Of a DNA stretch of 38,228 bases, positions 2,101-34,834 are shown one piece after another (position 1 is the stretch's first letter; the number at the start of each line of letters is the position of its first letter). Position numbers and translations under genes: made by a program. The DNA comes from a virus (Duplodnaviria > Caudoviricetes). Under the pieces are notes generated by a model. It had not been told where the DNA came from and made no database searches. It saw nothing but the letters and a program-made list of their open reading frames with translations. Location: positions 1 to 38,228 of IMG/VR virus record IMGVR_UViG_3300008117_000123; one strand, 5' to 3'.

Positions 2101-2687
2101 ATATATTTTATCTTGACCATAATCCTGTGAAGTGTGCTGAAATGCACGTTGACCGCCATGTTTGTAAAATGGTGATCGAGTATGCTCAGTTACTTTCTAC
2201 TGCACACCGAGTTCTTGATGGTGAGATGTACCTTGGTAAAACAACCAATAATCGTAATATCAAACGGTGGCGCCTGCCAGATGAACGTGAAGAACGATTG
2301 ATGAAGCCTACGATGATGAACCATCCATCAGCCATATGGGTTCGCCAAAGTAAGGCCAACTATACTTGGCTCTATAATATGTGGTGTGAACTACTTAAAG
2401 AGTTTACATATCGTTATGGTAAAGTTCATGCCACGGCACGATTGATACCTGACTTGGCTCGTGTACCGGATAATTGTCCAATTGGTTCATTTACTGGCCC
2501 CACACCTGCCATGCCAGATGAGTGTAAAGTGCCGAATAATTCATTACAATCCTATCATAACTATTATCGTATGAATAAATCACATCTTTGGTCATGGAAA
2601 GGTAAGATAAATAAAAGAGAAGTACCAGTCTTTATGAAAGAATGGTTTCGAAAAATGAATGAATCACTTGCCCATGAGTATAGTTAA
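2097..2687 (+). CDS. denV: Pyrimidine-dimer DNA glycosylase / endonuclease V (DenV)-like protein
   Basis: MNIFYLD...HVCKMVIEYAQLLSTAH and NHPSAIWVRQS...Y..L motifs typical of this family. Confidence 0.7.
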   Translation: MNIFYLDHNPVKCAEMHVDRHVCKMVIEYAQLLSTAHRVLDGEMYLGKTTNNRNIKRWRLPDEREERLMKPTMMNHPSAIWVRQSKANYTWLYNMWCELLKEFTYRYGKVHATARLIPDLARVPDNCPIGSFTGPTPAMPDECKVPNNSLQSYHNYYRMNKSHLWSWKGKINKREVPVFMKEWFRKMNESLAHEYS

Positions 2688-2968
2688 TGCCAACCTATGA
2701 TTTTTTAAATAAAGAAACAAACACAATCGAAGAACACCGTATGTCATATACGGTGTTAGATGAATTCATACAATCAAATCCACATTTACAACGATACCAT
2801 TCAGCCGAGAACCTACCAGTTTTTGGTGATGTGGGTCGTATGAATGTTCCTCGTACCAAAACTGCCGATTCTGCCTTTGAGAAAGGTGTCATACAACGAA
2901 TTAAAGATACGGTACCAGGAAATACACTACACAAATCACACAAGACAAAGTTGCCTAGAGAATGGTAA
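2687..2968 (+). CDS. Conserved T4-like hypothetical protein (FmdB-like MPTY start, no Cys)
   Basis: MPTYDF.N.ET N-terminus, TAATG coupling. Confidence 0.6.
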   Translation: MPTYDFLNKETNTIEEHRMSYTVLDEFIQSNPHLQRYHSAENLPVFGDVGRMNVPRTKTADSAFEKGVIQRIKDTVPGNTLHKSHKTKLPREW

Positions 2969-3085
2969 TAGTGAACAATCAACTTCCACTTCTACTTAAC
3001 ATCAGGAGGCCAGATAATGACAAAGTTAATCCTGTAGAATCCGCTTCTAAAATTCCAAAATATAATAATAACGATAGGAGTTTTA

Positions 3086-3235
3086 ATGAGCAAAAAAAGA
3101 ATGATGTCAAAACAACAGCGGCTATATTACGAATATCAAAACAAGGAAAAAATTCGGCAGGAATTGATAGAATATATAAAGTTACAAAGAGAAGTCGACC
3201 AATTAAAAGATTACAGGAAAAATAATGTTATTTGA
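3086..3235 (+). CDS. Hypothetical 49-aa basic/helical protein (not in ORF track)
   Basis: AGGAG at 3076-3080 then ATG. Translates as MSKKRMMSKQQRLYYEYQNKEKIRQELIEYIKLQREVDQLKDYRKNNVI* and overlaps the rSAM start. Confidence 0.55.
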   Translation: MSKKRMMSKQQRLYYEYQNKEKIRQELIEYIKLQREVDQLKDYRKNNVI

Positions 3236-4676
3236 AATACACGCTGAAAAATCAAAAGATGATAAGAAAATATTTTATTATGATAACATGAGCAATATTT
3301 TAAAGGACGCCAATGGTATCGTATATGAATATCCGCAACCAATTGAAATTCCTAAAGAATACACAAAACCATATAAAGCATTTAATAAAAACAATCCTTT
3401 AAAGAAATCAAAGTTAATCACAACACTTAAAATTCAAATGGGATTAAGTTGTAATTATTCTTGTGATTATTGCTCACAAAAATTTGTTGAACGTATGCCT
3501 GAAACATCTAAAAAAGACATTGATGCTTTTATGAAAAAATTAGAAGTTTTAGAATTTGATGAAAGTAAAGGATTGAAAATAGAATTTTGGGGTGGTGAAC
3601 CATTTGTTTATTGGAAAACAATGAAACCACTAGCAGAATTGTTGGCAGAAAAATTTGAGAATTGGGAAAGAAAACCAAGATTTTCTGTTATTACAAACGG
3701 ATCTATTCTTACAGATGATATTATTGATTGGTTGATGATGTATGATTTTGATGTGGCCATTTCACATGATGGACCTGGTCAATCAGTTCGTGGGCCAGAT
3801 CCGTTTGACGATCCTGAACAAAAAGAAAGAATATTGGGTTTTTATAGAATGATGAAACGTTTGGGTAAAGTAATAAGTTTTAATCCTATGATGAACGCAA
3901 AAAATAGAAGTCGTAAAGAAGTTTATGAATGGTTTGTGAATTTAACTGGTGATGAATTTGTAACACTAGGTGAAGGAGGTATCGTAGATGCTTACGATGA
4001 AGAAGGAATTTCAAATTCTTTACTAACAAAAAAAGACCATTTTGAATATCGAAGAACGGCTTTTGCTGACATATTTTCCACAGGCGGCAAAATTGGATTC
4101 ACTATTCCAAAAGAAAAAACGTTTCAATTTACCAAAAGTGTTCTTGCTCACCGAAAATCGGATTTTTTAGGTCAAAAATGTGGCATGGATGAAGAACAAG
4201 CTTTAGCTGTAGATTTGCGTGGTAATGTAATGACGTGCCAAAACGTAAGTTCTCTTGAAATGTCAAAAAATGGCGAGTCGCATCACGGAGGTACATTAGA
4301 AGATTATGATAATGTATCAATTAAATCATCAACACATTGGTCGAACCGTAAAGAATGTTCTGGTTGTCCTGTACTACATATTTGTAAGGGTGCCTGTATG
4401 TTTTTGGATGAAAAATTTTGGGACATATCTTGTGCAAATTCATATTCGGATAACATACCATTTTTTGTTTTAGCTATACAGGATATAACAGGTTATATAC
4501 CAACACTCATAAAAGGTGATGGTCTACCACTCGAAAGGCAAGATATTTTTGGTACAATTTACGAACATAAGGAAGATTTGAAAAAGAAAATTATACCTAT
4601 CAAAATAATTAGTGAGAAGATTGGTGTGATTGAAGGTGTCGAAATTTACGGAAAATCCAAAGTAGAAACAATATAA
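3225..4676 (+). CDS. Radical SAM enzyme with SPASM domain (peptide/protein maturase type)
   Basis: CNYSCDYC (CxxxCxxC, nt 3450-3473), WGGEP, ITNG and SHDGP motifs. C-terminal SPASM cysteines: KCG...GNVMTC...CSGCPVLHICKGAC...SC. Confidence 0.93.
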   Translation: MLFEIHAEKSKDDKKIFYYDNMSNILKDANGIVYEYPQPIEIPKEYTKPYKAFNKNNPLKKSKLITTLKIQMGLSCNYSCDYCSQKFVERMPETSKKDIDAFMKKLEVLEFDESKGLKIEFWGGEPFVYWKTMKPLAELLAEKFENWERKPRFSVITNGSILTDDIIDWLMMYDFDVAISHDGPGQSVRGPDPFDDPEQKERILGFYRMMKRLGKVISFNPMMNAKNRSRKEVYEWFVNLTGDEFVTLGEGGIVDAYDEEGISNSLLTKKDHFEYRRTAFADIFSTGGKIGFTIPKEKTFQFTKSVLAHRKSDFLGQKCGMDEEQALAVDLRGNVMTCQNVSSLEMSKNGESHHGGTLEDYDNVSIKSSTHWSNRKECSGCPVLHICKGACMFLDEKFWDISCANSYSDNIPFFVLAIQDITGYIPTLIKGDGLPLERQDIFGTIYEHKEDLKKKIIPIKIISEKIGVIEGVEIYGKSKVETI

Positions 4677-4679
4677 ATA
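4672..4679 (+). promoter_or_regulatory. T4-type late promoter TATAAATA
   Basis: Perfect gp55 consensus overlapping the rSAM stop codon, 27 nt before the ATG at 4707. gp33 is encoded in the window. Confidence 0.75.
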
Positions 4680-4706
4680 CTGAATAATAAAGATTAGGAC
4701 GTAAAA

Positions 4707-5654
4707 ATGACATTACCATCATCTGGACCAATATCCGTATCGCAAATTAATCAAGAAATTGGTCAATCATCAACATATTCTAGTGATTTAAATTTTTTAA
4801 ACAATTTAGTGTTGCCGTCTATACGACCAGGTACTCCTAATATGGCTGGATTTTATGGCCTAAGTTATTTTCAAAAAAATACTGCAGGAAATTGCAACGG
4901 CACGGGAATTAATAATTGCTGTGAAAACTGCGCTTCAGGAAATTGTCCTGTAGTTGACCCATCAAATTGTAATTGTGGATGCGGTGATCAAAGTCAAAAT
5001 TGCCATGTGTGTGCTAATTGTGGAGCTATTAATTGTGCAAATTGTGATAGCCAATCATGGTTACAAACAGGAAATTGTAATCAACAACCGCCACCAACAT
5101 ATAATTGTACAAGTTTTCAATGTTATGCTCAAGCTTGTAATTGTTCAAAAATTATTTGTCATAAATTATATCAACTCGGTATGATGCCCCATGATATTTT
5201 TTATGCTGACCAAAAATATGGTAATTGGTTGAGAGAAAATGATCCAGAAGTTTATGCTGGTTATATTCGTTGGGCTCAAGTTATTGTTGATGGCATGGAA
5301 GGCAAATCTCCGGACTTTATGCTTTGGATGTCCAAAGATGAACGTAAAAAAGCTGAAAAACAAAAATTTATTAAGTGGGCTCACCGTATAGCAACTCCTT
5401 GGTCGCAACATATGGCTTATATTATGAATATTGTGAATAGAGATAATGATATTGGCCGTATATTGATGCGTGTTGGTCGACCAATTAGCCGTTTGGTAGG
5501 TAAGTTACCAAATAAAAATAAACCAGTTGGTTTATTGACCGTATATTTTATTTGGATTACATTTGCGGGAACATATTACTCAGCAGAAATTTATTCTAAA
5601 ATAGTTAAATTATTTAATAATAAATTATTCATAAGGAAAAAATACAATGAATGA
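4707..5654 (+). CDS. Cys/Asn-rich protein with virion-type N-terminus; putative rSAM/oxygenase substrate
   Basis: N-terminus MTLPSSGPISVSQINQEIG. Residues 62-146 hold 18 Cys, 13 of them in Asn-Cys dipeptides. C-terminal KIIC..LY..G...GY..WA domain followed by a hydrophobic helix and a basic tail. Confidence 0.75.
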   Translation: MTLPSSGPISVSQINQEIGQSSTYSSDLNFLNNLVLPSIRPGTPNMAGFYGLSYFQKNTAGNCNGTGINNCCENCASGNCPVVDPSNCNCGCGDQSQNCHVCANCGAINCANCDSQSWLQTGNCNQQPPPTYNCTSFQCYAQACNCSKIICHKLYQLGMMPHDIFYADQKYGNWLRENDPEVYAGYIRWAQVIVDGMEGKSPDFMLWMSKDERKKAEKQKFIKWAHRIATPWSQHMAYIMNIVNRDNDIGRILMRVGRPISRLVGKLPNKNKPVGLLTVYFIWITFAGTYYSAEIYSKIVKLFNNKLFIRKKYNE

Positions 5655-5973
5655 AAATGAAATCGTCATCGAGAGAGATTTATTGCATGAGTATGTTGAT
5701 TACTACTTCAACAATATTTTTTTCAATGCAATACTAAATTTACCTGAAGAACAACGTGCAAACGTCTTTACCATGTTAACAACTCATGTGAATGTGTTGT
5801 CCGAATTATTAAATGCTGGCAATCACCCGATATTGGACCACATCAAAGGCACACCATGGCAGACAGCAAACACAGCTTCGGAAATGAGTACAGAAGTTCG
5901 AATTAATCGTGAGCAAGCACAACCTTTGATTATGGCATATGATGAGTGGAAATCAAATAGAACAACTGAATGA
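5647..5973 (+). CDS. Hypothetical protein within the modification cluster
   Basis: 108-aa ORF, AAGGA upstream, overlaps both neighbours. Confidence 0.7.
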   Translation: MNENEIVIERDLLHEYVDYYFNNIFFNAILNLPEEQRANVFTMLTTHVNVLSELLNAGNHPILDHIKGTPWQTANTASEMSTEVRINREQAQPLIMAYDEWKSNRTTE

Positions 5974-6664
5974 CCGTGAAAAGTTTCACTGGTATCAAAA
6001 TGCGCAAAACTTATTTTGGAAATCTCCAATATGGGAAGTTCAAACAAAATTTAATGCAGAATTCAATAAAAAACTACTAGACGAAATTTATAGTATAGGT
6101 TATGGCATCGCCACTGGCCAAGATAAAAAACCAAAAGACAGCATATGGGATTATGACAAGCCCAATCTAAACATTATCAAACAAGAAATTATTGATATTG
6201 TTACAAAAACAATAACCCAACAAATTCCAGAAATCAGAATGTTAAACCTTAAAGGTTGTGAGCACTTCTTTGGCTGGGTTAATGTGCATGAACCGGGAGA
6301 AGGTTTAGAAGTACATGGCCATACAGAATCCGCTATTGCGGCCACATATTACATACAAGCACCAGAAGGATGTGGAGAGTTGGTACTATTTGACAGTTCC
6401 AACGCAATTGATTGGAAAAACACCACTTTAACCGGTACGCCTGTAGTGAAAGAACGAAGAATCAAACCTATTGAAGGTAAATTGGTCTTTACACCATCAT
6501 ATGTTCTTCATGGTGTAACGGAGAATAAATCAAATGATTTACGTATATCTTTATCTACCGATTTACGAAAGGTGGTTGACAAAAACACCAATAATACTGT
6601 AATATTAAAAAGTTGGGCCAGTCGAATGAAAAAAATTAAAGAATGGAAATGTTCACAAAGTTAA
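5939..6664 (+). CDS. 2OG-Fe(II) oxygenase (TIGR02466-like)
   Basis: WVN...VHGH...ATYY...GELVLFD...EGKLVFTPSYVLHGV...RISLS. Confidence 0.85.
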   Translation: MMSGNQIEQLNDREKFHWYQNAQNLFWKSPIWEVQTKFNAEFNKKLLDEIYSIGYGIATGQDKKPKDSIWDYDKPNLNIIKQEIIDIVTKTITQQIPEIRMLNLKGCEHFFGWVNVHEPGEGLEVHGHTESAIAATYYIQAPEGCGELVLFDSSNAIDWKNTTLTGTPVVKERRIKPIEGKLVFTPSYVLHGVTENKSNDLRISLSTDLRKVVDKNTNNTVILKSWASRMKKIKEWKCSQS

Positions 6665-7182
6665 ATTATGAGTTTTCTAAACCCATATATGCCGTTACAC
6701 AGGGGTTGAATACGTTTACGGGTGTTGATAATAAAGGTATAGATTATAAAAAGATATGGTCACCTGAACCCGAAATAATGTATAAGATTTTACCTAAAAA
6801 ATATTGGGAAGATTTTTATTTAACTGTTATGACCATCAATCGAAATATACCACCACATACAGATAGTGATATATTAACCACAATTAATTTTTACATTGAA
6901 ACTGATAACTGTAAAACGATATATTATGAACCTTTGGTAGATGATTTGCAGATATTTCAAATAAAAAATCAAACAAATGGATTCATATACAAAAAAGAGC
7001 AATTAAAAGAAGTTGGTAGTTTCGTGGCACAACCAATGGAAGTTTGGGTATTAAATGTTAAGAAAATTCATAGTGTCGAATCGGATAAAGAAGAACCTTT
7101 TAGAAAAGCCGTAACTTTAGGCACAAGAAAACATAATTATGAATCGGTGTGTGAGATGTTAAAAGAAACTGGATGTCTATGA
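6643..7182 (+). CDS. Putative 2OG-Fe(II) oxygenase (DSBH fold)
   Basis: IPPHTD (HxD), distal IHSV and RKAV; INFY strand. Confidence 0.7.
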   Translation: MEMFTKLNYEFSKPIYAVTQGLNTFTGVDNKGIDYKKIWSPEPEIMYKILPKKYWEDFYLTVMTINRNIPPHTDSDILTTINFYIETDNCKTIYYEPLVDDLQIFQIKNQTNGFIYKKEQLKEVGSFVAQPMEVWVLNVKKIHSVESDKEEPFRKAVTLGTRKHNYESVCEMLKETGCL

Positions 7183-7808
7183 ATATAATTCGTAATGATT
7201 GGTGGGTGACACCGGTGTGGGAAATACAAACAGATTTTGATGAAAAATTTAATGATAATTTATTAAGTGAATTGAAATATTTTTACACAGATGAAAAAAT
7301 TAAAAATATCAAAGATTCTAATATATGGGTGATGAATACACCTTATGTAAAATCATTAAATGATTATATAATTAAAATGGTGACAGAACTTACTTATGAT
7401 TATGTTGCAAAAAATTATGATGAATATGAATTTCATCACACAAGAGGTTGGGTTAACTATAGTTTACCTGGACAATCCATGGCAATACATGATCATGGAG
7501 GTAGTAAAATAACAGCAACATACTATATACAAACAGATGATGATTGTGGTGACCTATTATTAATTGATCCCCGTGGTGGTGTAGATTGGGACAAAGAGGT
7601 TTATAAAAATGTTAATGGAGCTAAATTTAAAAAAATAATACCGAAACCAGGAAAACTTGTATTTTTTCCATCATATGTTTTACATTCTGTAGATGTTAAT
7701 AAATCTAAAAATATGAGAATTTCATTGTCTACCGATATGCAAACATTTTCAACTAATCTATTGAACAATTTTATAGAAATGAAAGAAAAACAAAAAAATG
7801 TGGTATGA
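7173..7808 (+). CDS. 2OG-Fe(II) oxygenase (TIGR02466-like), paralogue of 5939-6664
   Basis: GWVN...HDH...ATYY...GDLLLIDPRG...PGKLVFFPSYVLHSV...RISLSTD. Confidence 0.85.
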   Translation: MSMNIIRNDWWVTPVWEIQTDFDEKFNDNLLSELKYFYTDEKIKNIKDSNIWVMNTPYVKSLNDYIIKMVTELTYDYVAKNYDEYEFHHTRGWVNYSLPGQSMAIHDHGGSKITATYYIQTDDDCGDLLLIDPRGGVDWDKEVYKNVNGAKFKKIIPKPGKLVFFPSYVLHSVDVNKSKNMRISLSTDMQTFSTNLLNNFIEMKEKQKNVV

Positions 7809-8580
7809 AAAATTAGATATTCAATTTGATATTGAAAAATTAAGAAAAGAAGTAGAAGAAAGTGTTTTTCCTCTAGGTGATCAAGTTGTTCAAGGTGAAG
7901 AATTTGAAACACAAAATTATCATGGGTTTGGTGGTTGGAGTATTTTGAGTAGGCGTGGTGATTGGAAAGATGGTTGGGAAGTTGTTCAGCATGAACATGG
8001 ATTAAAATTAGAAAATTTTCTACCGACAAGAGAATTGATTATGAAGTCGTACAAACATTTTAATATTGCTCACAGTTTGGAGCACGATAGACCAACTCAA
8101 GCTTGTGTCGGAGAAATTAAAAAGGTTGTAGATAAATTGAAAGATTTGGGATTTGAACCAAGGCGAGTAAGAATAACTTGTTTACAGCCTCATTGTAAGA
8201 GCTTGGTGCACAAAGATGCTGAAACAACAGATTATATGGCCAGAATACACATACCATTATGGACAAACAAAAAGTGTGTTCATATATGTCAAGGAAAAAA
8301 TTTACATATGCCGGCCGATGGATCAGCATACATTGTTTGGGTGAATTTGTGGCATCAAATTAGAAATGATTCCGATGAGCCTAGATATCATATTATAATG
8401 GATGCTTACGATACTAAAAAAATAACAAAGTTTTTTAAGTATGAAGGTGAATTTCAACAGTTAGAAGATTTCACCAGAAAATTTAGGCAAGATATAGAAG
8501 AAGCGGAGCTAACACAAGAAGATATTGACTTCTTTGAAGCTATTAAAGAGAAATATGTAACCAACTATAACGTAACGTAA
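7798..8580 (+). CDS. Aspartyl/asparaginyl beta-hydroxylase-like 2OG-Fe(II) oxygenase
   Basis: R.RIT.L.P...L.VHKD...RIHIPLWTN...HMPADG...VN..HQIRN....RYHII. Confidence 0.8.
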   Translation: MWYEKLDIQFDIEKLRKEVEESVFPLGDQVVQGEEFETQNYHGFGGWSILSRRGDWKDGWEVVQHEHGLKLENFLPTRELIMKSYKHFNIAHSLEHDRPTQACVGEIKKVVDKLKDLGFEPRRVRITCLQPHCKSLVHKDAETTDYMARIHIPLWTNKKCVHICQGKNLHMPADGSAYIVWVNLWHQIRNDSDEPRYHIIMDAYDTKKITKFFKYEGEFQQLEDFTRKFRQDIEEAELTQEDIDFFEAIKEKYVTNYNVT

Positions 8581-8581
8581 A

Positions 8582-8722
8582 ATGAATGCAAATACAAAAT
8601 TAGACATATGCAATACTTGTGAGAATTATAAAGTTAAAATAAAAATATGCACACAATGCCATTGTTATATGCCAATTAAAGTAAATTTACCTTTTGTAAA
8701 ATGCCCTATAGGAAAATGGTAA
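8582..8722 (+). CDS. 46-aa Cys-rich protein (DUF6171-like; not in ORF track)
   Basis: MNANTKLDICNTCENYKVKIKICTQCHCYMPIKVNLPFVKCPIGKW*, with CxxC...CxxCxC...CPxGKW. TAATG-coupled to the next gene. Confidence 0.75.
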   Translation: MNANTKLDICNTCENYKVKIKICTQCHCYMPIKVNLPFVKCPIGKW

Positions 8723-9381
8723 TGTTTAATTACTGCCCACCAAAAGTATTACAAGACCTACCATCAGAAACATTTCCTGATGGTAAACGGTTTTATAAAC
8801 TACCTGATGGTACAAAATTACCATCGGTCACCACAGTCATTGGTGCTCAAAAGAAACATATTTTTCAGGCATGGCGCAACAAAGTGGGTGAAGATGTTGC
8901 CAATGCCATTACCAAAAAAGCAACTTCTCGTGGTACAAATGTTCATACATTGTGTGAACGATATTTAAACAATGAATCATTAGGTAATATTATGCCCGAT
9001 GCACATGAAATGTTTTTATCAATCAAACCGCATTTAAATCGTATTAACAATATTCATTACCAAGAACAAGCATTATGGTCCACACAATTAAAGATGGCAG
9101 GCCGAGTGGATTGTATTGCTGAGTTCGATGGTGTGCTTTCGGTAATTGATTTTAAAACATCCAAAAAAATTAAGAGCCATGAGGACATTGAAGATTACTT
9201 CTGGCAAACATCTGCCTACGCCTTGATGTATGAGGAGTTGATTGGTCAACCTATCCATGATTTGGTTATCGTCATGGCCGTTGAGGATTCGAGTCCTATC
9301 GTATTCAAACAAAAGACCGAGGACCATATCACAGGCCTAGTCAATGCCATTTCATATTATGAGAAAAGTGGTAAATATTAA
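8722..9381 (+). CDS. PD-(D/E)xK exonuclease (Cas4/RecB-like, T4-like phage type)
   Basis: LPSVTTV...RGTNVH...AGRVDCIAEFDG.LSVIDFKTS...Q..AYA. Start reassigned to the coupled ATG at 8722. Confidence 0.85.
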   Translation: MFNYCPPKVLQDLPSETFPDGKRFYKLPDGTKLPSVTTVIGAQKKHIFQAWRNKVGEDVANAITKKATSRGTNVHTLCERYLNNESLGNIMPDAHEMFLSIKPHLNRINNIHYQEQALWSTQLKMAGRVDCIAEFDGVLSVIDFKTSKKIKSHEDIEDYFWQTSAYALMYEELIGQPIHDLVIVMAVEDSSPIVFKQKTEDHITGLVNAISYYEKSGKY

Positions 9382-24901: not shown

Positions 24902-26062
24902 ATGCGTTTTCATATTTTAGGTTTACCACATACTGTATCTTCAAAAGAATATAATGCTTGTGCTTATACACAAAAGGTAGTTAAATTTGGCAAAATGATG
25001 AAGTCGTTAGGCCATACTATTATACACTACGGCCACGAAGATTCAGATTTAGTTTGTGATGAACATGTTACGGTCACCACTAATAAAGATTTAGAAATTG
25101 CTTATGGTGATTATGACTGGCGTAAGAATTTTTATAAATTTGATGTCAATGACCATGCTTACCAAACATTCTATAAAAACGCCATTGTGGAGGTTGGTAA
25201 AAGAAAACAAAAACACGATTTTATTCTTCCTTTTTGGGGATCAGGTGTGCGTCCAGTTTGTGATGCACATTCAGATTTAATTTGTGTTGAACCAGGAATT
25301 GGTTATGCTGGCGGACATTGGGCTCGCTGGAAAATATTTGAATCATATGCAATATACCATGCTTATTATGGAATGACAGCCGTTGGTAGTTGCAAACAAG
25401 ATTGGTATGATGCAGTTATTCCAAACTATTTTGATCCTGATGATTTTACTTTCCAAGAAAAGAAAAAAGATTATTTTTTATTTTTAGGTCGTGTATATGA
25501 TGGTAAAGGTGTAAATGTTGCGGTTCAAGTAACTGAAGCACTTGGTGCCAAATTAATTATTGCAGGCCAAAATTCATTAACTCAAATGGGTTATAAAGAG
25601 ATACCTGCTCATATTACTGAAATTGGTTACGCTGACGTTGAGATGCGAAGAAAATTGATGTCCGGTGCAAAAGCAGCCTTTGTGCCATCAATGTATGTTG
25701 AACCTTTTGGTGGAGTTCAAGTTGAAATGTTGTTCTCAGGAACACCTACAATTACAACTGATTGGGGTTCATTTACAGAAAATAACATACATGGAATTAC
25801 TGGTTATCGTTGTAGAACCTTTGAACAATATTTGTGGGCTGCTAACAATATTCACAATATTAATCCTAAAAATTGTCGTGCTTTTGCTGAAAACTTTACA
25901 TTAGAAAAAGTTGGCAAAATGTATGAGGAATATTTTCAATCTGTTTTAAATGTTTACACTGGTAATGGTTGGTATGAAAGAAATGATGCAAGACTTCAAT
26001 TGAATTGGTTAAAGAAAAATTATCCTCATGAAATGCCTCAAACTATTAAACTAAATAGTTAG
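24902..26062 (+). CDS. GT-B (family 4-like) glycosyltransferase
   Basis: FLFLGR...KG...IIAG...[12 protein letters not shown]...GTP.ITTDWG...E...G.TG. Confidence 0.88.
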
Positions 26063-26101: not shown

Positions 26102-34282
<8,181 letters not shown>

Positions 34283-34283
<1 letters not shown>

Positions 34284-34834
34284 TGCCTAGTATTCAATCA
34301 ATTTTGATGAATAGTATAAACAATGTAAAGTTGAATAATTATCTTGCTGGTTTATTTAAAACCACATATTCGGGATACTTTGCTGATAATGTTAGTTTTT
34401 TTGCAACAGCTACACCAACAACTTTTGGCGCTAACCCAGCAACATCAGTTCAAACTACCGCAATTTCAGAACCAAGTAGTGATGATGGAAGTAGTTTTAG
34501 TGTTCAATGGTTAGGTTATTTTTTACCAAACACAACAGAAACATATACATTTTTTACATCAAGTGATGATGCTTCTTATGTTTGGGTAGGTTCAAATGCT
34601 TTGTCTGGATTTACAACTGGAAACGCAACAGTAAATAATGGTGGGTTACACGGTACTGTTGAAGCAAATGGAACTGCTTCTCTTACAGCAGGTATATATT
34701 ATCCAATAAGAATACAATTTGGTGAGAATAGTGGTGGTGATGTGTTAACATTTAATTATTCCACACCAACGATAACAAAAACAACTGATGTTACCGGTAA
34801 AGTATTTTATAATCCAACAACGAACGGATTTTAA
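34283..34834 (+). CDS. PA14-domain protein (putative carbohydrate-binding)
   Basis: FSVQWLGYF.P..T.TYTF.TSSDDASY.W.G...NNGG.HG...L.AG.YYPIRIQFGE.SGG. Confidence 0.85.

Follow-up and report, generated by a model that had tools for sequence, protein, structure and literature searches.

A 38,228-nucleotide contig from a freshwater T4-like phage (IMG/VR record IMGVR_UViG_3300008117_000123, positions 1 to 38,228, hereafter called the window) carries a two-gene core composed of a radical S-adenosylmethionine (rSAM) enzyme with a SPASM domain and a protein bearing a dense tract of Asn-Cys (NC) dipeptides. This pairing recurs among many phages and prophages, mostly where the tract forms the end of a tail fiber, and therefore these viruses likely cross-link the tip with which they grip the host. 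The comparisons described below suggest that the enzyme probably, though by no means certainly, forms Cys thioethers in a fiber-tip protein. The enzyme-substrate pair is widespread and apparently undescribed.

A preliminary description of the window had proposed a phage version of the systems that make RiPPs (peptides synthesized by ribosomes and modified after translation), and had assigned to it eight contiguous genes comprising the enzyme, the NC protein, a hypothetical protein, four 2-oxoglutarate (2OG)-Fe(II) oxygenases and a Cys-rich mini-protein. All eight plus-strand open reading frames (ORFs) are real and are located exactly where they had been placed. They also overlap for the most part, as is evident from five of the seven internal junctions when the most upstream start codons are used. 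The gaps within the cassette are 30 bases (enzyme gene to NC gene) and 1 base (fourth oxygenase gene to mini-protein gene).

Results

The enzyme and the NC tract are linked in both directions

Relatives of the enzyme were collected from viral contigs (80 of 98 in one scan, and 80 of at least 170 in another), genome contigs (80 of 134) and phage records, and loci fetched by other anchors were also searched for them. The resulting 231 clusters at 95% identity include 143 with at least 3.5 kb of upstream and 2.5 kb of downstream sequence, which were kept, and 88 that were left out. By rule, a same-strand NC tract lies within 5 kb of the enzyme gene in 129 of the 143 clusters, and in none is a tract found solely on the opposite strand (0/143). 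Inspection of the 14 misses revealed a shorter or more distant NC tail in 11 cases, which brings the count to 140 of 143. Among control loci that lack an rSAM gene, an NC tract is present in 1 of 44.

The reverse search gave a matching result. Viral contigs were scanned for DNA encoding NCNC[ND]C[ND]C, and the portion of the collection covered contains 122 such loci. Flanking sequence was available for 80, of which 54 are coding ladders. An rSAM gene is present at every coding ladder with at least 3 kb of downstream sequence (44/44, representing 34 distinct tracts), with 34 of these enzymes belonging to the family described here and 10 being other rSAM proteins. Ladders with short flanks have an rSAM gene in 5 of 10 cases, and a family enzyme lies near 3 of the 26 loci that were not counted, being non-coding or different in nature. 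Likewise, proteins that share the C-terminal SKIIC domain of the window NC protein have an rSAM gene in 45 of 45 cases when they carry an NC tract, and in 0 of 14 when they do not. Clusters share ancestry, so these counts do not represent independent events. Even so, the paired enzymes include some that are as little as ~35% identical, and they occur in myovirus as well as siphovirus contexts. The preliminary description had counted its proposal as refuted if homologs of the enzyme usually had no Cys-rich neighbor. They do have one, and the linkage proves to be tight whichever partner is used as the starting point.

The enzyme family comprises at least 2853 protein clusters at an E value of 1e-30 or better. 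Several prophage-type copies of the cassette occur within single betaproteobacterial and roseobacter genomes (loci L091, L098, L102 and L114; L141 and L142), and a second group of phage NC ladders is accompanied by more distant rSAM proteins, often two or three per locus (L391, L398, L407, L418, L429, L432, L456).

The enzyme has a CteB-like pattern of cluster ligands

The earlier assignment of the enzyme to the rSAM/SPASM class holds, with scores of 37.3 bits for PF04055 (cutoff 29.5) and 33.5 bits for the SPASM model TIGR04085 (cutoff 27), and the protein matches phrog_1802 with an E value of 5e-60. It contains exactly ten Cys residues, all invariant across 43 relatives, of which three form the CxxxCxxC motif (C76, C80 and C83) and seven the SPASM motif (positions 319, 338, 378, 381, 387, 391 and 403). 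Among named models for thioether maturases (PapB, QhpD, CteB/ScfB, TIGR04463 and CcpM), none reaches its cutoff, with the best being PapB at 87 versus 340 bits.

The predicted structure of the enzyme (pLDDT, the predicted value of the local distance difference test, 88) has anSME, TigE and CteB as its nearest folds. Residue C319 aligns with C255 of anSME, and no Cys occupies the position of anSME C261, as is also true for CteB. Given the lack of a C261 equivalent and of any spare Cys, one auxiliary iron would stay free, and by sequence the enzyme would have the open, three-Cys first auxiliary cluster of CteB. Residue D277 of anSME, which has a catalytic role, is replaced by Gln in this family, and the anSME model TIGR03942 scores 43 versus 349 bits.

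The conserved unit of the tract is the NC dipeptide

The NC protein (315 amino acids) consists of three parts, namely an N-terminal module, the NC tract and the SKIIC domain. The high Cys density noted preliminarily was confirmed, with 18 of the 19 Cys residues in the protein falling within residues 63 to 146 (84 residues), and 13 of the tract Cys directly following Asn. In the unmodified model, pLDDT is below 50 over most of the tract. Across relatives, 72% of 2111 tract Cys have Asn at position -1, and 45-48% have another Cys at ±2. The 753 isolated Cys, defined as having no Cys at ±2, are preceded by Asn at -1 in 77% of cases, by Asn at -3 in 20%, and followed by Asp at +4 in 11%. The dominance of Asn at -1, together with the 13 NC and 3 NxxC occurrences in the window protein, indicates that the conserved unit is the NC dipeptide. 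The motifs NxxC and CX3D(E) were also considered as the conserved unit and were rejected, since the dipeptide is far more common.

A total of 199 tracts were classified by what follows them. Most end at a stop codon (128) and others continue into SKIIC (58), a Hint domain (6) or an S74-like chaperone (1), with 6 left unclassed by the script; the Hint domain was verified in Achromobacter phage JWF. Hint and S74 domains excise themselves, and thus the mature tract is probably C-terminal. In a separate observation, the NC gene of one locus (L240:4454-4708) appears to be shortened to 84 codons compared to 160 in the near-identical L239, through a frameshift or an assembly error.

The NC protein is a predicted fiber-tip adhesin

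The tract forms the C-terminus of the tail-fiber gene in Ralstonia phage RSP15 and in Achromobacter phages JWF (gp28) and 2-1, and it has the same fiber-end position in prophages of Limnohabitans and other Proteobacteria. In the window, a 58-residue N-terminal module is found in place of the fiber shaft. A quick tree built from 81 enzymes places those of such module-type systems together in a single group with 11 members (SH-aLRT, an approximate likelihood ratio branch test, 94). In sister phages, the same module at the same site heads Gly-rich GP38-type proteins and RCC1 proteins.

This site was surveyed by anchoring on the flanking exonuclease gene, and 51 of 80 loci span the interval from regulator to exonuclease. 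The enzyme and NC genes are present in 24 of the 51, while the other 27 are empty or carry other genes, several of them module-headed, and include no NC tract (0/27). Two of the module-headed alleles, L225 and L227, match phrog_2056 and Pfam GP38, beginning right after the module (for L227, 25.3 bits from residue 68 against a Pfam cutoff of 25; L225 scores below cutoff). The PF05268 body of gp38 has no match in the window NC protein or in 56 relatives. In fold searches with the NC protein, the matches were filled by the C-terminal domain. The module gene directly follows an S74-ended fiber gene in five of eight other loci checked, though not in the window, and two prophages encode a small NC protein like that of the window between an S74-ended fiber and the rSAM enzyme. 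The interval is hypervariable, being empty in L199, L207 and L208 and occupied by module plus Gly-rich or RCC1 heads in L191, L195, L200, L201, L214, L225, L227 and L233.

A motif of the T4 late promoter type, TATAAATA, lies just before the NC gene. It occurs twice in the window, with the other copy preceding a gene of the tail region. Among module genes, 46 of 54 have ATAAATA upstream, compared to 4.8 expected from shuffled sequences, and no such motif was found upstream of the other cassette genes tested. The enzyme gene is located upstream of this promoter. Parts of the region, among them 4701-5447 without differences, are matched by contigs of four metatranscriptome runs from four studies; these may derive from DNA and are not counted as expression.

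The label of virion protein that had been given to the NC gene product was an inference rather than an observation. The accompanying proposal, that the substrate is a part of a fiber or adhesin rather than a secreted peptide, is probably correct in light of the fiber-end tracts and the gp38-type sister alleles. As judged from these sequence relationships, the NC protein is likely a tail-fiber-tip adhesin docked by its module.

Discussion

A proposed route from NC tract to modified tip

The sequence itself shows that the two genes are paired, that the NC gene has a promoter motif and a three-part layout, and that the enzyme carries the seven-Cys SPASM motif, and the following series of steps could be built upon these observations. 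The enzyme would bind three [4Fe-4S] clusters and hold an auxiliary iron open for a substrate thiol, like CteB and PapB. It would then abstract a hydrogen from the Asn before each Cys and join the Cys sulfur at that site, with a loss of 2 Da for each linkage. The ring resulting from such an Asn-Cys link would have six members when closed at C-alpha, the enteropeptin arrangement, and seven when closed at C-beta. SKIIC might subsequently come off, like Hint and S74 domains in the same position, so that the tract becomes the C-terminus, and the N-terminal module would dock the product on the fiber tip in the manner of gp38. Finally, lineage-specific oxygenases, or in relatives B12-dependent rSAM proteins, halogenases and desaturases, could tailor the tract.

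Our confidence differs among the parts of this scheme. Tailoring of the tract by accessory enzymes is a proposal for which we see the chances as evenly balanced. That each thioether is made precisely to the preceding Asn is doubtful, albeit suggested by the dipeptide statistics. Similarly speculative is the broadest form of the idea, in which many phages would build the receptor-binding tip as a RiPP, with each Asn-Cys becoming a thioether ring, with C-terminal domains that remove themselves and with swappable decorating enzymes.

Several observations weigh against thioether formation in a fiber tip. The top fold match of the enzyme model is anSME. At six catalytic-site positions taken from PMC10288494, the enzyme has S84, W122, I156, S180, Q339 and N340 whereas CteB has F, F, T, S, H and Q, and with one of six shared, the linkage type is not transferable from known ranthisynthases. 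The usual layout of a RiPP recognition element (RRE) served as the reference for judging the region before the catalytic domain, which in the model has three strands and no helices, and so no complete RRE is evident. Three enzyme clusters (L071, L524 and L532) have no clear NC neighbor. In this phage, the NC gene sits outside the tail cluster, and hidden Markov model searches gave no direct match between the module and the attachment domain of gp38. SKIIC is possibly cleaved off, a suggestion drawn solely from its position, which Hint or S74 domains take in relatives. Oxygenases were not detected in 28 of 57 lineages, and they are present without an rSAM gene at the same site in at least 4 of 27 loci.

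Other explanations for the tract must account for the same data. The tract might be a metal-binding Cys ladder at a trimeric fiber tip, akin to the His-x-His iron needle of T4 gp37, with the enzyme preparing or altering it without making thioethers. The frequent spacing of Cys at ±2 would place thiols on one face of a strand, and in most of the distant relatives the ladder ends a fiber protein. However, a plain metal ladder could do without a radical enzyme of its own, whereas the linkage is near absolute both ways, and even isolated Cys retain the preceding Asn, which leaves this explanation quite unlikely. A different radical reaction on the tract is also unlikely, if a little less so. It could convert Cys to formylglycine or a thioaldehyde as an anSME-like enzyme would, or could involve epimerization of every other residue followed by hydroxylation and methylation, for which the polytheonamide enzymes are the model. 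Such a reaction would suit the anSME fold match, the active-site profile unlike that of CteB, and an accessory set (2OG oxygenases, the AspH-like protein and, in relatives, B12-dependent rSAM proteins) that resembles proteusin clusters. The enzyme nevertheless lacks the second AuxI Cys of anSME (C261) and has Gln at D277, its seven-Cys pattern fits the thioether former CteB, and the epimerase YydG ranks low (E 7e-6).

Two further alternatives concern where the product acts and what the oxygenases do. It is very unlikely that the product of this lineage stays off the virion, with the module serving as a leader and the modified tract kept inside the infected cell, either anchored through the hydrophobic SKIIC helix or released as a peptide, for instance for exclusion or signaling. 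The gene does occupy a variable site flanked by regulator and exonuclease genes rather than by tail genes, and SKIIC ends in a moderately hydrophobic helix and a basic tail. Conversely, the NC gene has its own late promoter, the module heads gp38-type bodies and follows S74-ended fibers, and SKIIC is also present on large structural proteins. A more serious prospect, though one we place somewhat below even, is that the oxygenases are independent passengers or act elsewhere, such as on the collagen-like fibers encoded at 26102-34283 or on small molecules, so that the system would consist of the rSAM and NC genes only, and this is compatible with cross-linking of the tip by the rSAM enzyme. Cyanophages commonly have dioxygenases in tandem arrays (PMC2938197), some loci have oxygenases at the site but no rSAM gene, their order and number vary, and the window encodes long collagen-like fibers. 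On the other side of the ledger, prophages and distant phages often have genes of the PF13759 type between the NC fiber gene and the enzyme gene, an arrangement that speaks against mere chance, and the AspH-like gene always accompanies the rSAM and SKIIC genes, albeit within one lineage.

Comparison with known systems

By sequence, the cassette would work most like CrpC/CrpA of Methanococcus voltae (TIGR04463) and QhpD/QhpC, in which a SPASM enzyme cross-links an adjacent Cys-rich whole protein (PMC13692751, PMC8326336). Its score, motif and active site all place it outside both families. The enzyme scores 48 bits against a cutoff of 525 for TIGR04463 and 71 against 453 for TIGR03906. Although both arrangements place a SPASM rSAM enzyme beside a Cys-rich whole protein, the known ones are cellular and use C-X-X-Q/D or Cys-Asp/Glu motifs, whereas the partner here is a predicted phage fiber part. 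The main text of the CrpC paper makes no mention of phages (PMC13692751).

The ranthipeptide maturases PapB, CteB and NxxcB share with the phage enzyme the CteB-type arrangement of seven SPASM Cys and, as for NxxcA, Asn as the likely acceptor. They differ in spacing, with Asn at -3 or +4 rather than at -1. The NxxcA ring joins Cys23 to Asn20, and neither NxxcA nor freyrasin has the spacing of the NC dipeptide (PMC8326336). In PapB and Tte1186, the chalcogen of the substrate is bound by an auxiliary cluster (PMC10177961). The i-1 geometry that an Asn-Cys motif would need is found with the enteropeptin sactisynthase, which links the Cys sulfur to C-alpha of the immediately preceding residue (MKGOCPPS; PMC12395415). 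That enzyme makes one ring in a small antibacterial peptide with ornithine as the acceptor, and the likeness drawn here is one of chemistry. In the case of anSME, which generates formylglycine in a sulfatase substrate, there are eight auxiliary Cys, including C261, along with Asp277, and the window enzyme has neither C261 nor the Asp.

Adhesin gp38 of the T2/S16 type (PF05268, phrog_2056) resides at the long-fiber tip and has an N-terminal attachment domain (PMC12032242). The NC protein is likewise small, and it too combines a predicted docking part at the N-terminus with a head that varies. The gp38 head is a beta-helix with a polyglycine sandwich, whereas the head in the window is the NC tract. 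To our knowledge, no modifying enzyme has been described for gp38. Phage arrays of tandem, unrelated 2OG oxygenases and halogenases are on record, as are beta-hydroxylase operons with tail-collar or collagen-like proteins (Iyer et al., PMC2938197), and the accessible text of that study describes no SPASM enzyme or Cys-rich fiber substrate in them. Our literature search, which did not cover most subscription papers, found no report of such a modification of phage fibers. One paper combines phage, radical SAM, receptor-binding protein and thioether (PMC12801897), and in its accessible text the rSAM gene is an antibiotic gene, not a fiber maturase.

Implications

The receptor-binding parts of phages are regarded as plain folded proteins. 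If they undergo maturation of the kind known for natural products, this would give host recognition and virion stability a further layer, and would account both for a large family of enzymes without annotation and for some oxygenases termed ‘auxiliary metabolic’. Tail fibers of this kind that are swapped or expressed would need their maturase. Should the tip truly be a RiPP, host range would be determined jointly by enzyme cassettes and fiber sequence, and the enzyme would be a processive dipeptide-cyclizing catalyst of new specificity. An Asn-Cys-cyclizing enzyme that acts on whole proteins would be of interest to peptide chemists. Cultured carriers exist in the form of Achromobacter phages JWF and 2-1.

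Accessory genes and other features of the locus

Table 1. Features of the cassette and its flanks in the window.
Coordinates	Strand	Feature	Evidence
2687..3235	+	phrog_385 regulator and 49-aa ORF, left flank of variable site	phrog match
3225..4676	+	Radical SAM/SPASM enzyme, 483 aa, predicted maturase	Profiles, Cys conservation, model
4672..4679	+	T4-type late promoter TATAAATA before NC gene, overlaps rSAM stop codon	
4707..4880	+	N-terminal module of NC protein, ~58 aa, predicted fiber-docking part in gp38 attachment-domain position	
4890..5144	+	Predicted substrate: Asn-Cys tract spanning residues 62-146, with 18 Cys, 13 of them in Asn-Cys pairs	
5145..5654	+	All-helical SKIIC domain, hydrophobic helix and basic tail at end; mobile, possibly cleaved	
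5647..5973	+	108-aa protein, partner of NC+SKIIC form	
5939..6664	+	TIGR02466-like 2OG-Fe(II) oxygenase, H126, H128, H191; accessory	PF13759, TIGR02466
6643..7182	+	HxD...H oxygenase-type protein, H72, D74, H143, R154; lineage-specific accessory	Motif conservation
7173..7808	+	TIGR02466-family 2OG-Fe(II) oxygenase, H106, H108, H171	TIGR02466 above cutoff, PF13759
7798..8580	+	Asp/Asn beta-hydroxylase-like oxygenase, lineage-specific accessory	PF05118, 34.4 vs 22.6 bits
8582..8722	+	46-aa Cys mini-protein, phrog_13558, probably passenger zinc-finger-type	
8701..9381	+	phrog_298 exonuclease, right flank of variable site	phrog match

The four oxygenase assignments made in the preliminary description are upheld by the ligands and profiles (Table 1). 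The two TIGR02466-like proteins have the H-x-H...H ligands, and the HxD-type protein has conserved ligand positions and no library match. The triad of the AspH-like protein (H138, D140 and H186) is conserved, and it matches PDB entry 7v4f (‘beta-hydroxylase’) with an E value of 3e-7. For lineage counts, enzymes were grouped into 57 clusters at 70% identity and oxygenases were counted within 4.5 kb. The claim that oxygenases belong to the system stands in part, since they are near the enzyme in 29 of 57 lineages (97 of the 143 finer clusters), and is otherwise reduced to an accessory role, given their presence at the site without an rSAM gene. The order and number of these genes vary among loci, and the oxygenase at 7173..7808 is missing from a 96%-identical locus (L008). 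The HxD oxygenase, the AspH-like protein, the 108-aa gene and SKIIC are near the enzyme in 1 of 57 lineages, which is the window's own; in that lineage, all 51 close homologs of the AspH-like gene that have enough flanking sequence lie by rSAM and SKIIC genes.

Inclusion of the mini-protein did not survive. Its claimed Cys pattern is present, yet it is near 1 of 143 enzyme clusters and occurs without an rSAM gene in L222 and L227, and on these grounds it was rejected as a second substrate. Small CxxC...CxxC proteins of two families follow gp38-like alleles (L201, L214, L225, L227), and the mini-protein of the window could be a zinc finger of this kind on the adhesin side.

SKIIC represents an unnamed family of mobile domains that are otherwise attached to the C-termini of large phage structural proteins, usually behind Gly linkers and sometimes immediately following a Hint-like end (appended loci L335, L346, L352, L359, L360, L369, L372-L374, L379, L380 and L085). 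It has no match in Pfam, NCBIfam or PDB sequences. Foldseek against the PDB returned nothing at an E value of 0.001, VIA gave a best Z of 6.4 to unrelated helical domains within background, and the Atlas held unnamed viral clusters only. Fusions of SKIIC were found in none of 13 candidates among longer proteins, though such fusions exist elsewhere in the data. A likeness to CFI-box-CTERM was considered and is unsupported by profile search. The terminal helix reaches a hydropathy of 1.6 in 32 of 84 cases, and that of the window is 1.26. The 108-aa gene follows all 45 NC+SKIIC genes and none of 14 SKIIC genes without NC. It has no usable Atlas match, and some of its relatives carry an N-terminal insert, which we take from its sequence to be EF-hand-like, that the window protein lacks.

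Other genes adjoin the core in relatives. Tailoring-type swaps include halogenases (L043, L188, L239), a B12-dependent rSAM protein (L176), desaturase-like proteins (L229, L576), heme oxygenase and PcyA-like proteins (L068, L069) and an N-type ATP pyrophosphatase-like protein (L190:7226-8338). An association between halogenases and a C-terminal Trp is suggestive at most, with both features at 3 loci, Trp only at 3, halogenase only at 4 and neither at 126. An unnamed protein of 240-320 aa with an Ig-like end is near the rSAM gene in 37 of 57 lineages (e.g. L072:4224-4955 and L103:5498-6352), mostly where the tract ends a true fiber, and is a candidate chaperone or stand-alone recognition element. 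Elsewhere in the window, two long genes for collagen-like (Gly-x-Thr) fibers of 1581 and 1144 aa occupy 26102-34283 on the plus strand, between a GT1 glycosyltransferase gene (24902-26062) and a GLEYA/PA14 protein gene (34280-34834). These fibers are a possible second site of fiber modification and a possible alternative substrate for the oxygenases.

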